Shown: positions 15,881 through 39,692 of the stretch, piece by piece
Layout: the number at the start of each line of letters is the position of its first letter
Position numbering within the stretch: the first letter of the stretch is position 1
Assembly: GCA_963805625.1 (NCBI GenBank)
Contig: CAWDVE010000017.1
Coordinates: 736,001-800,000, forward strand
Length of the DNA: 64,000 bases
Direction: 5' to 3'
Origin: an uncultured Candidatus Rokubacteria bacterium
GTDB taxonomy: Bacteria; Methylomirabilota; Methylomirabilia; Rokubacteriales; DASRDR01
The notes under the pieces: generated by a model
Database searches by the model: none
What the model saw: the letters and a program-made list of their open reading frames with translations, nothing else
Told to the model about the DNA's origin: nothing
Made by a program: the position numbers and the translations under genes

Positions 15881-16318
15881 CTACTTCCGGTCGAGCCTCG
15901 CGCTCCGGGGCGTGGCGCACTTCCCGCCACCCTCCTCGGTCACCTGCAGCGAGACGGCGCCCCGCTTTCCTCGCCATCGGAGCACGCGCTCCTGGACCCG
16001 CGGATCGTCGGTCCGCGTCTCGAGGACGATCTCGGTTCCCGTGACCATGCCCGTGACGTCCCAGCTGGCCGTTCCCCACGGGTACGTGGTGGCCGCCAGA
16101 CCACGAATGCGTCCGCCCTCCTCGATGGAGACGTCGAAGGTGAATGGCACGCACTCCGCGAGGTCGCCAGTGGTGCGCCCCGCGTAATAGTCTCCTCGCC
16201 AGAGACCGATGCACCCGGTCACGAGCCACGCCGCGGCCAGGGGACCGAGCCAGAGGGCATGCCGGGCGGTCCACCTCGTCGGCGCCCACGTCCGGGACCC
16301 GCTACCCGGCCTCAGCAT
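15881..16318 (-). CDS. Hypothetical lipoprotein
   Basis: GAGGAG RBS, lipobox-like LAAAWLVTGC, two further Cys residues; co-oriented with the upstream run. Confidence 0.6.
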   Translation of the reverse strand: MLRPGSGSRTWAPTRWTARHALWLGPLAAAWLVTGCIGLWRGDYYAGRTTGDLAECVPFTFDVSIEEGGRIRGLAATTYPWGTASWDVTGMVTGTEIVLETRTDDPRVQERVLRWRGKRGAVSLQVTEEGGGKCATPRSARLDRK

Positions 16319-16355
16319 GTCGCTCTCCTCACGGCGCTCGTCGCTCTCACGGGCA

Positions 16356-37428: not shown

Positions 37429-37580
37429 GTGAAGGCCTCGTGTGGAAATGATCAATGGACCAATGCCATACTCGATAATTGCCAACCAGGTAGCGGCGGA
37501 ACGGCCACCGCGGGCGATGGCGGGCCGTCACATACGACGGGCCCTGGCACGAGGCGACGTGGATCACCAGGGAGAAGCAC

Positions 37581-39692
37581 CTGATTCCTGATCCCCCCTC
37601 TGGAGCGGCAGCCCGGCCCGCGTTCGAGGGTTTCCTCGAGGGACTCTCGACGGCGCTGGCGCAATGCCCCCTCGATACCCTCGATATTCAGCTCGATGAG
37701 CTGGTCGGCCGGGTCGGCGGTTTCGTCGATGTCGATCAGGCCGCACTGGCCCGACCGCCGCTCGACGGTGGGCCGCTTCGGATCACCCACTGCTGGGTCC
37801 GGCCGGGGTGCGCGCTGCTGGACCCGTTCGACCCGACGACCCAGCTCCCGTGGATCGCGGGCCGCCTCGGCGGCGGGGTCCCGGTCTGCCTGGCGACGCC
37901 CGACGACCTCCCGGCGCCAGCGGCGACGGACCGGGAGTTCCTCGAGCGGCGTGGGATCCGGTCGCTCGCCGGTCTGCCGTTGCTCACCGGCGGGGCGTCG
38001 GTCGGCTGGCTCATGCTCGGCACGGTCCGTGACGGCAGGTCCTGGCCTCCCCCGGTAATCGACCAGCTGAGGCGGATTGCCGAGATCATCGGGAGCGCAC
38101 TCGCACGGGCGCAGAGCGACCACTCGTTGCGACGCGCCATCGACTTCGACCAGAGCGTCGCCGGGCTCGCGGCGAGCCTGCTCCGCGTGCCGGTCGATAC
38201 CATCGACGCGCAGATCATCCAGACCCTCGGAGCCGTCGGCGAGCTGCTCCGGGCCGACCGGGCAAGCGTCATCCAGCACGATCCGGCCCTGCGGACGGTG
38301 ACGCGGACTCACCTCTGGGTACGGATGGGCACCATCGGCCCTCCGGTGACCGATCCACAAGATGCGTTCCCGTGGATGATTCGCCGGCTATTCCGGGAGC
38401 GGGAGCTCGTGGTCCTCGCGCGCCTTGACGAGCTGCCGCCTGAGGCCGCGCGCGACCGCGGGACCCTCGAGCGTTATGGCGTCGTGTCTGGCGCGCTGGC
38501 GCCGATGGTCGTCGAGGATCGTGTCGTCGGCGTAGTCTCGTTCGCGACGGTCAGGCGGGAACAGCGATGGGCCCCGGAACTCGTCGCTCGCCTCCGGCTG
38601 GTCGGCGAGATCATCGCCAGCGCCCTCGCCCGCCGGGATTCCGAGCTCGCCCTCCGGACAGCCCTGTCGGAGAAGGAGCGTCTTCGCGAGCGGCTCCAGG
38701 TCGAGAACGTCTACCTTCACGCGGAGCTCGTCGAGGCCCGGGACTTCGGCGAGATCGTGGGGCGGAGCCCGGCTCTGCGGGCGGTGCTGGAGAAGGTCCG
38801 CCAGGTCGCCGACACGGACGCGGCGGTCCTCCTCCTCGGCGAGACCGGCACCGGCAAGGAGCTGCTCGCTCGCGCCCTCCACGGGCACAGCCGGCGGAAC
38901 GCCCGGTCGTTCATCGCGGTCAACTGTGCCGCGCTGCCGGCGGGGCTCATCGAGAGCGAGCTCTTCGGCCACGAGAAGGGCGCCTTCACCGGCGCGACCC
39001 ACGCGAAGCCCGGCCGCTTCGAGCTCGCCGACCACGGGACGCTCTTCCTCGACGAGGTCGGGGAGCTCGAGCCGGCCCTCCAGACGAAGCTTCTCCGCAT
39101 CCTCGAGGACGGTGAGATCCAGCGGCTCGGCGCGACGGTGACGCGAAAGGTCGACGTCCGGATCATCGCCGCCACGAACCGGGACCTGCGTCGGGACATG
39201 CGCGAAGGCCGGTTCCGGTCCGACCTCTACTACCGCCTGGGTGTCTTCCCCATCGAGGTGCCACCGCTGCGGGACCGCCGGGAGGACATCGTCCTGCTCG
39301 TCTGGCACTTCATCCAGTCGCGGCAGCGGGCTCTGAACCGAGCGATCACGAAGATCCCCAAACCCGCGATGGCTGCACTCCAGGCCTACGACTGGCCCGG
39401 GAACGTCCGCGAGCTGCAGAACGTCATCGAGCGGGCCATGATCCTCTCGCCGGGATCGATCCTCAGAATCGAGGATGCCTTCGGGCTGGGACCAGAGGCG
39501 CGGGTCGAGGTCGGCCGGAGATCCTCCGGAGAATCCCTGCAGGACGTCGAGCGGGCCCACGTCGTCCGGGTGCTCAATAGCTGCGGGTGGACGATTGAGG
39601 GCCGCGGCCAGGCGGCCGACCGCCTCGGTCTGAACCCGAGCACCCTGCGGAACCGCATGCGCAAGCTCGGCATCAGACGCCCGGCACAGTAG
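37581..39692 (+). CDS. Sigma54-dependent enhancer-binding protein, FhlA-like, GAF-GAF-AAA-HTH (probable CTG start)
   Basis: [28 protein letters not shown] and a Fis-type HTH. The frame is open from 37494 and encodes a first GAF-like repeat before the TTG at 37980; AGGGAG precedes the CTG at 37581. Confidence 0.88.

Follow-up and report, generated by a model that had tools for sequence, protein, structure and literature searches.

The 64,000-nucleotide window analysed here (positions 736,001 to 800,000 of contig CAWDVE010000017.1, from an uncultured Candidatus Rokubacteria bacterium) carries a long minus-strand gene run, within which five genes form a core that is conserved far beyond this lineage: those for an OprD-family porin, a long-form decarboxylase of the Rv2531c type, the aspartate 4-decarboxylase AspD and two exchangers of the AAE family, AspT1 and AspT2. 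We consider it reasonably probable that this core takes in glutamate and aspartate, decarboxylates them and releases γ-aminobutyrate (GABA) and alanine, and that within the genus a sigma54-type head and passenger modules have been joined to it. An earlier note on this sequence had read the entire run as a single regulated module spanning both membranes; it is for the two-membrane core, with its porin, two decarboxylases and two exchangers, that this reading stands. The core genes are the following.

35436..36806, minus strand: OprD-family porin (PF03573, 93.5 bits, cut-off 25)
32563..35317, minus strand: long-form decarboxylase of the Rv2531c type, with a one-base frameshift near 34357
30743..32434, minus strand: AspT1, AAE exchanger of the 'Arg495' type (TIGR03802, 674.9 bits; pocket signature; partners)
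28975..30621, minus strand: AspD, aspartate 4-decarboxylase (TIGR03801, 743 bits against a cut-off of 435; PDB 2ZY2, E 2.6e-151)
25807..27501, minus strand: AspT2, AAE exchanger of the 'Glu131' type (TIGR03802, 659.5 bits)

The association of the long enzyme with AAE exchangers is found in several phyla. Among the enzyme loci compared (the best 80 of 546 confirmed loci, a set that leans to close relatives; in none of the co-occurrence counts given here are kin independent), 68 have enough downstream DNA, and in 67 of these the enzyme has an AAE exchanger as its neighbour. AspD is present in 29 of the 69 loci from outside the phylum, and 34 of them have a porin, which is either OprD or DcaP and never both. 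The order enzyme-AspT1-AspD-AspT2-porin recurs in one Burkholderiales and one deltaproteobacterial genome. Within the phylum (200 genomes), the enzyme occurs in 31 genomes, AspD in 28 and both in 26, and every enzyme carrier (31/31) has an AAE gene. On plasmids, an exchanger is adjacent to the enzyme in all 15 cases in which the latter is at least 57% identical. The coupling persists in loci without AspD, and four Burkholderiales genomes with such loci have no AspD match at all. GltS glutamate carriers, often accompanied by a TAXI binding protein, are inserted in or beside the core in many loci (compare PMC12344293); GltS with a long TAXI-type binding lipoprotein was seen at L016:4360-7185 and also at L032, L124, L128, L130, L134 and L195. 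One locus from a record labelled Chloroflexi (L057) has the enzyme at 93% identity and a porin gene upstream, reflecting either misbinning or recent transfer.

The substrate of the long enzyme is likely glutamate and its product GABA, as judged from a single assayed relative, since the match to Rv2531c is full-length and the recognition residues are kept. The full-length comparison used an intact relative of 917 amino acids, 99% identical to the two pieces into which the frameshift splits the window's gene. This relative matches PDB 9N0N with an E value of 1.4e-223 over residues 21-914, the extra N-terminal part included, and its length agrees with the 920-950 amino acids or so expected of a four-domain protein with an extra N-terminal domain. 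By comparison, the full-length enzyme reaches at most 169 bits against the solved classical lysine, arginine and ornithine decarboxylases, and the C-terminal piece of the window's split gene at best 177 bits against the classical KOR family models, whose cut-offs are 794-1310. PDB entries 9N0N, 9N0O and 9N0P represent Mycobacterium tuberculosis Rv2531c, described as a 'cloaked' long-form L-glutamate decarboxylase (PMC13506015, PMC12329521) of a subfamily of more than 1,000 sequences (PMC13506015). According to the text of PMC13506015, Rv2531c converts glutamate to GABA, as supported by deletion, labelling and nuclear magnetic resonance evidence, requires Mg2+ and is inactive on lysine, ornithine and arginine; K406, T606 and R576 are given as its glutamate-recognition network. 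The 'LAO-type' label attached to the gene by the earlier note must accordingly be given up, its closest studied relative acting on glutamate and not on those three basic amino acids.

In the alignment with 9N0N, from which counterparts were counted by eye, the window's copy has H410, K411, K577, R583, T612 and N735 as counterparts of H405, K406, K570, R576, T606 and N731, so that the pyridoxal phosphate (PLP) lysine and the proposed recognition residues are kept. The counterparts of H405/K406, R576 and N731 occur in 75 of 75 full-length homologs, and the T606 pattern in 51 of the 75 as well as in the window's copy. R718 is replaced by lysine in the window and in 70 of the 75 homologs, with the charge kept. 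This substitution, together with the fact that a single member of the subfamily has been assayed and that the R576, R718 and N731 mutants of Rv2531c were unstable, leaving their role in specificity to modelling (PMC13506015), leaves some room for a different substrate, whether basic, as annotated, or another acidic one, for which AspT2 would then be the exchanger. We regard this as very unlikely, the full-length four-domain match and the invariance of R576 telling against it, as do the neighbouring carriers, which are those of acidic amino acids (AAE, GltS); no APC-type antiporter was found among the recurrent neighbour families checked.

The assignment of AspD is supported by its PLP-lysine motif, which aligns with that of 2ZY2. 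Three relatives (G002, G004 and G005) have an AspD with only some 50% identity to that of the window, next to neighbours with 70-96%; the gene has likely been replaced in place. AspT1 and AspT2 each pass the TIGR03802 cut-off and each have a duplicated permease domain and two TrkA-C domains. The pocket residues described for T. halophilus AspT (PMC12462496) were mapped onto them by alignment. Counterparts of S132, Y163, Y167, T496, Y524, F66, F69, L431 and F434 are kept in the window's exchangers; Q131 is changed to Ile or Glu, D495 to Arg or Gly, R76 to Gly or Lys and S498 to Thr. A tree of 112 exchangers (FastTree without bootstrap, at least 430 aligned residues, frameshifted copies excluded) contains four main groups: 1) the AspT1 group and 2) a deep group confined to AspD-free loci (19/19 members), which have Arg at 495 in common; 3) the AspT2 group and 4) a fourth group, which have Glu at 131 in common.

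Many loci have one exchanger of each type. AspT1-type exchangers accompany AspD alone in G030 and in the Ruegeria, Parabacteroides and Caballeronia stretches. All 26 genomes with an AspT2-type exchanger have the long enzyme and 24 of them AspD, and in two loci (G030 and Phyllobacterium) the AspT2 type stands directly behind the enzyme in the absence of AspD. An obligate AspT1/AspT2 heterodimer was considered and rejected, single-exchanger loci of each type being found. It seems most likely that AspT1 serves AspD; it likely carries aspartate and alanine, and possibly glutamate and GABA too. AspT2 is the best candidate for a glutamate/GABA exchanger, at about even chances. That one or other of the two carries glutamate is likelier than this specific assignment, because glutamate and succinate carriers are said to belong to the AAE family (PMC9527358), because GltS insertions recur and because a search for classical GadB returned no match in this genome.

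Under the cycle that we propose, the porin would admit acidic amino acids, the long enzyme would convert glutamate to GABA and AspD aspartate to alanine, each using one cytoplasmic proton, and the two AAE exchangers would swap the incoming anion for the outgoing neutral product. The cycle would thus yield proton-motive force and buffer the cytoplasm, as AspD and AspT together are reported to consume a proton and build proton-motive force (PMC12462496), and its role would be acid defence or energy gain at low oxygen.

Another possibility is that the long enzyme makes GABA for a GABA shunt or for osmotic control of glutamate, while what the exchangers carry out of the cell is alanine and a C4 acid, for instance succinate, with no exchange of glutamate for GABA. 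The role and kinetics of Rv2531c, which feeds the GABA shunt (PMC13506015), are in line with this, as is the inclusion of a succinate exporter in the AAE family (PMC9527358, PMC12462496); close to the Phyllobacterium locus, a gene for succinate-semialdehyde dehydrogenase is found among ectoine genes, and MscS and DASS genes recur nearby. A purely internal shunt, however, leaves the near-obligate exchanger and the frequent porin unexplained, and no GABA transaminase scores above the cut-off in this genome, though 10 relatives score below it. We therefore rate this alternative as improbable.

Several observations nonetheless count against the glutamate/GABA and aspartate/alanine cycle. The shunt role of Rv2531c and the kinetics obtained in its assay at pH 7.3, with a K0.5 of 509 mM (PMC13506015), fit acid defence poorly unless the kinetics differ here. 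In Ensifer an AspT1-type exchanger accompanies the long enzyme where AspD is missing, so that the strict rule that AspT1 serves AspD only has failed. AspT1, AspD and AspT2 stand apart from the long enzyme in G179 and G107, and 5 of the 31 enzyme carriers lack the AspT2 type. Of 201 Burkholderiales genomes searched, 17 were AAE-positive, and in 4 of these an exchanger of the Glu131-type fourth group has no adjacent decarboxylase, which disposes of the idea that Glu131-type exchangers always stand behind a glutamate decarboxylase. None of the 23 plasmids with a more distant enzyme (50% identity or less) appears among the exchanger records listed (50 of 54); because these distant-enzyme plasmids are absent there, the enzyme-exchanger link belongs to one branch of the subfamily. 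Finally, GH13, one of the passenger genes discussed below, is near the core in 15 of the 31 carriers, which is above what a loose pool of neighbours strictly needs.

We would go further, although with somewhat less than even confidence, and propose that AAE exchangers have been recruited in many soil and sediment phyla as glutamate/GABA antiporters for the long-form decarboxylase, giving an acid-resistance or energy cycle that is independent of GadBC and assembled from unrelated parts, that the pairing of Arg- and Glu-pocket exchangers would be a division of labour, and that in Rokubacteria this cycle has been fused with AspD under a GAF-GAF sigma54 switch.

In the GadA/B-GadC system of glutamate acid resistance, glutamate is taken in, a proton is consumed and GABA is exported. 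The net chemistry predicted for the window is the same, but its enzyme and carrier come from other families. CadBA, AdiAC and SpeF-PotE are the corresponding decarboxylase/antiporter systems for basic amino acids. With these the window's pair shares the PLP superfamily (PF01276) and the gene logic, but the enzyme has about 200 extra residues, falls far under the cut-offs of the KOR models and has an AAE instead of an APC partner. From the AspD-AspT cycle of T. halophilus (AAEx, TC 2.A.81; PMC12462496), to which it is tied by family cut-offs and most pocket residues, the window's core differs in having two exchangers with unlike pockets (Arg495 in AspT1, Glu131 in AspT2), a second decarboxylase, a porin and a diderm host. 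As to Rv2531c, the difference, apart from the lysine at R718, lies in the coupling of the enzyme to AAE exchangers, AspD and a porin; the word 'antiporter' is absent from the main texts of both Rv2531c papers (PMC13506015, PMC12329521). No description of the pairing of the long decarboxylase with an AAE exchanger was found in the literature searched, most subscription papers and all supplements lying outside that search. The parts are already known, and what this locus adds is the contrast between the AspT1 and AspT2 pockets, a sigma54 footprint at genus level and the separability of the accessory genes.

That footprint lies at the head of the run and comprises the following features.

37581..39692, plus strand: GAF-GAF-AAA+-helix-turn-helix sigma54 activator, genus-level (PF00158, PF01590, PF02954; GAFTGA in the sequence)
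37497..37525, minus strand: conserved element about 85-110 nucleotides upstream of P1, limits approximate (columns common to at least 7 of 8 aligned promoters)
37414..37428, minus strand: sigma54-type promoter P1, conserved in all 7 relatives that have the STAS-like gene
36981..37328, minus strand: small protein of genus-level distribution, STAS-like by an unconfirmed label (identity of 57-83% across 7 relatives)
36848..36862, minus strand: sigma54-type promoter P2, ahead of the porin, found in 5 of 8 genus relatives

The two -24/-12 promoters announced by the earlier note are both present (37428-37414 and 36862-36848), as is its divergent GAF-GAF activator, which is 65% identical over 676 of 679 amino acids to an intact relative with two GAF domains. 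The activator frame is open from 37494 and its start is probably the CTG at 37581, which is preceded by AGGGAG (window 37569-37583); non-ATG activator starts are apparently used in several relatives too. A search of the genome with the activator gave 48 matches, one of them 75% identical and only 7 kb away, and a further sigma54-like site, the third with TGGAA, lies at window 59631-59645 (minus strand). A match to the consensus is in itself little proof of P1 and P2, because the loose consensus with two mismatches gives 44 matches where 44.4 are expected by chance; it is conservation that carries the case. A tighter pattern gives 81 matches in the genome against 15.6, with shuffle values of 0.00075 and 0.0002, figures that are optimistic because the pattern was picked after both sites had been seen. 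P1 is conserved together with its upstream element in the relatives that carry the STAS-like gene, and of the 27 look-alikes of this element only the copy at 37497..37525 precedes a sigma54-like site; it is a candidate binding site for the activator.

Outside the genus the picture differs. Promoters of the P1/P2 type were found in none of 5 loci there, and a scan upstream of 74 of the 80 enzyme loci, which overlooked a true site in at least one case, the porin there being split by a frameshift, gave 8 relaxed matches (2.5 expected) and 1 strict one, on which general sigma54 control of the core across loci was rejected. The genome has rpoN; the combination of a -24/-12 site, rpoN, a GAFTGA activator and the upstream element was seen within the genus only. 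In one relative (G008) the core and P2 are retained, the activator being truncated and the STAS-like gene absent. Control by sigma54 at the head of the run is therefore likely but local to the genus, where the conserved promoters and element bear out the earlier proposal. The STAS label given to the first gene was confirmed by no library, none returning a family match, and none of the 69 loci from other phyla has the gene. On contig C10 (about 1745850-1748600), a second divergent pair, paralogous to this one and likewise made up of a small STAS-like gene and a GAF activator, stands before an unrelated set of genes for exported proteins; a matching promoter or upstream element was not found there.

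The rest of the run consists of accessory genes, several of which we regard as passengers.

28174..28962, minus strand: exported small beta-domain repeat protein (CusF match under cut-off; 6 of the 69 loci from other phyla have a distant relative)
27646..28114, minus strand: DUF4136 protein, with a one-base frameshift near 27811 that is likely an assembly error
25234..25773, minus strand: passenger, three-helix membrane protein of no family, with two paralogs elsewhere in the genome
24977..25156, minus strand: doubtful open reading frame of 59 amino acids, probably no gene (relatives carry other genes or nothing there)
24235..24975, minus strand: passenger, exported SYLF/Ysc84 protein (PF04366), absent at this place in 2 of 8 genus relatives
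21206..23990, minus strand: passenger, GH63-like (MGH1-like) glycosidase without signal peptide (PF22422, PF03200), with three paralogs elsewhere
20119..21204, minus strand: passenger, lipoprotein of 361 amino acids from a large unnamed family (lipobox VSGC; 4136 relatives at E<=1e-10)
18620..20122, minus strand: passenger, GH13 alpha-glucan enzyme without signal peptide (PF00128; GH13-type conserved motifs present)
16356..18623, minus strand: passenger, large lipoprotein from a large unnamed family (lipobox LAGC; 1519 clusters at E<=1e-30; two paralogs)
15881..16318, minus strand: passenger, small lipoprotein (lipobox VTGC), at this place in 4 of 8 genus relatives

All 15 minus-strand genes were located in the place and order given by the earlier note, with intergenic gaps of -53 to 305 nucleotides and the last five genes abutting or overlapping, and the reading frame that it had doubted has no blastn match in 14 stretches from 13 related genomes. 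AspD (TIGR03801), both AspT proteins (TIGR03802), the porin (PF03573), DUF4136, SYLF/Ysc84, GH63 (PF22422 and PF03200, over part of its length) and GH13 (PF00128) score above curated cut-offs. The OB-repeat label of the repeat protein received no library confirmation. GH63 gave no PDB match and no solved relative. For the two larger lipoproteins, atlas look-alikes are unnamed clusters and a profile search of the PDB gave no match; a Pfam scan of lipoprotein relatives gave an SH3 domain on 1 of 18 and nothing else.

Three genes of the run are broken by a one-base frameshift, namely those for the long decarboxylase, DUF4136 and GH63. The first two breaks are likely assembly errors, because contigs without the extra base were found in 4 of 4 DNA runs examined for the site near 34357 and in the 3 DNA runs, all those with cover there, for the site near 27811; real pseudogenes at these two sites were ruled out on the same grounds. 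The GH63 break near 23930 (true ATG 23990) is likely of the same kind, judging from intact relatives only. A flanking glyoxalase-family gene (window 15439-15876) is apparently frameshifted too, which fits indel errors in the assembly. The composition of the run is not that of an island, as it had been called: its GC content is 68.5%, compared with 69.4% for the whole genome and 70.5% and 70.0% for the two flanks, and a search for a tRNA gene at the region found none. The patchy presence in the phylum, with the enzyme in 31 of 200 genomes, suggests gains and losses.

What remains to be weighed is whether the whole 21-24 kb could be a single unit, driven by sigma54 and induced by acid, whose glycosidases and lipoproteins share the decarboxylases' job. 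The genes share one strand, along which a scan (weak in GC-rich DNA) turned up no terminator-like site, and in 8 genus relatives the order is kept, with some losses and insertions, and the promoters are conserved. GH13 is no more than 20 kb away from the enzyme in all 8 carriers of the genus and in 7 of the 23 remaining ones, a linkage that short contigs undercount, and in 7 genomes of another family the distance is at most 12 kb. GH63, too, is near the enzyme in 4 of the 69 loci from other phyla. RNA contigs over the region (4 runs) are short pieces from relatives, mostly of 85-95% identity.

Against such a unit, 27 of the 53 genomes of the phylum (out of 200) that have GH13 are without the long enzyme, GH63 and GH13 are upstream of the core in some genomes and downstream in others, and the promoters were not found in the 5 loci outside the genus. 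In one family, of which 0 of 19 members carry the core, the 361-amino-acid lipoprotein abuts GH13 in 3 genomes, GH63 being also present in both of those that were fetched, and once in this core-free family the GH63-GH13-lipoprotein cassette sits between an OprB porin and GH77. A paralogous cassette accompanies a glucose dehydrogenase on contig C14 of the present genome, with a paralog 89% identical to the 361-amino-acid lipoprotein, which is linked to the core in 7 carriers, 6 of them within the genus. In the 69 loci from other phyla, tblastn over the 10 kb around the enzyme found GH63 in 4, SYLF in 1, the large lipoprotein in 2 and the repeat protein in 6, and the STAS-like gene, the membrane protein, GH13 and both smaller lipoproteins in 0, the zeros for GH13 and the lipoproteins being weak as these lie beyond 10 kb from the enzyme in the window's own layout. 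Distant members of the DUF4136 and SYLF families recur in some Acidobacteriota loci.

A single unit of this extent thus seems unlikely, and the full arrangement is confined to the genus. A neighbourhood search of the kind that the earlier note suggested does place GH63 or GH13 near the core in 7 of 23 carriers from other genera; otherwise these genes are separable, following the core fully only in the genus, occurring without it and switching sides. The co-occurrence whose absence the earlier note had named as refuting its reading is thus half borne out. The glycosidase and lipoprotein genes probably form modules of their own, attached only loosely to the core. As for the GH63-lipoprotein-GH13 cassette, it is likely a module for glucosides or alpha-glucans that works in the cytoplasm, probably drawn from a pool of stress and ion-balance genes clustering here; it may be co-transcribed with the core in the genus, and the core has no need of it.

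Other genes recur around the core. More widely, RND pumps, MscS, DUF3300/DUF2950, K+ channels, carbonic anhydrase, CaCA, PPK2 and NhaA are found near the enzyme. To the right of the core (window 40621-58783) are a winged-helix/AAA regulator, a second activator, a second SYLF protein, TamB and Omp85, which recur beside the core in 7 relatives; of two proteins without family (window 56216-57427 and 57809-58783), the first, which has two paralogs, is found again in several genomes next to either the core or the GH63 cassette. Past the window, to about 820 kb of contig C17 (L198), come genes for AI-2E, carbonic anhydrase, CaCA, NhaA, an RND pump and a large-lipoprotein paralog; these families are also seen around the enzyme in other phyla. 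Genes for nrfHA-like cytochromes c adjoin the core in at least six relatives (L018:14575-16440, L020, L030, L190, L195 and L197) and are on contig C19 in this genome; these neighbours in relatives hint at a low-oxygen setting.

The claim of an integrated 21-kb unit is of lesser weight, because it is confined to the genus level. The core matters more: if the proposed cycle is correct, it would give the Rv2531c subfamily a physiological setting outside mycobacteria and the AAEx family a new substrate pair, and two routine labels, 'Orn/Lys/Arg decarboxylase' and 'aspartate-alanine antiporter', would be corrected. The core can be tested in cultured Ensifer, Phyllobacterium, Cupriavidus and Lysobacter, and, on the same condition, would suggest that uncultured lineages abundant in soil, namely Rokubacteria and Acidobacteriota, release GABA and tolerate acid.

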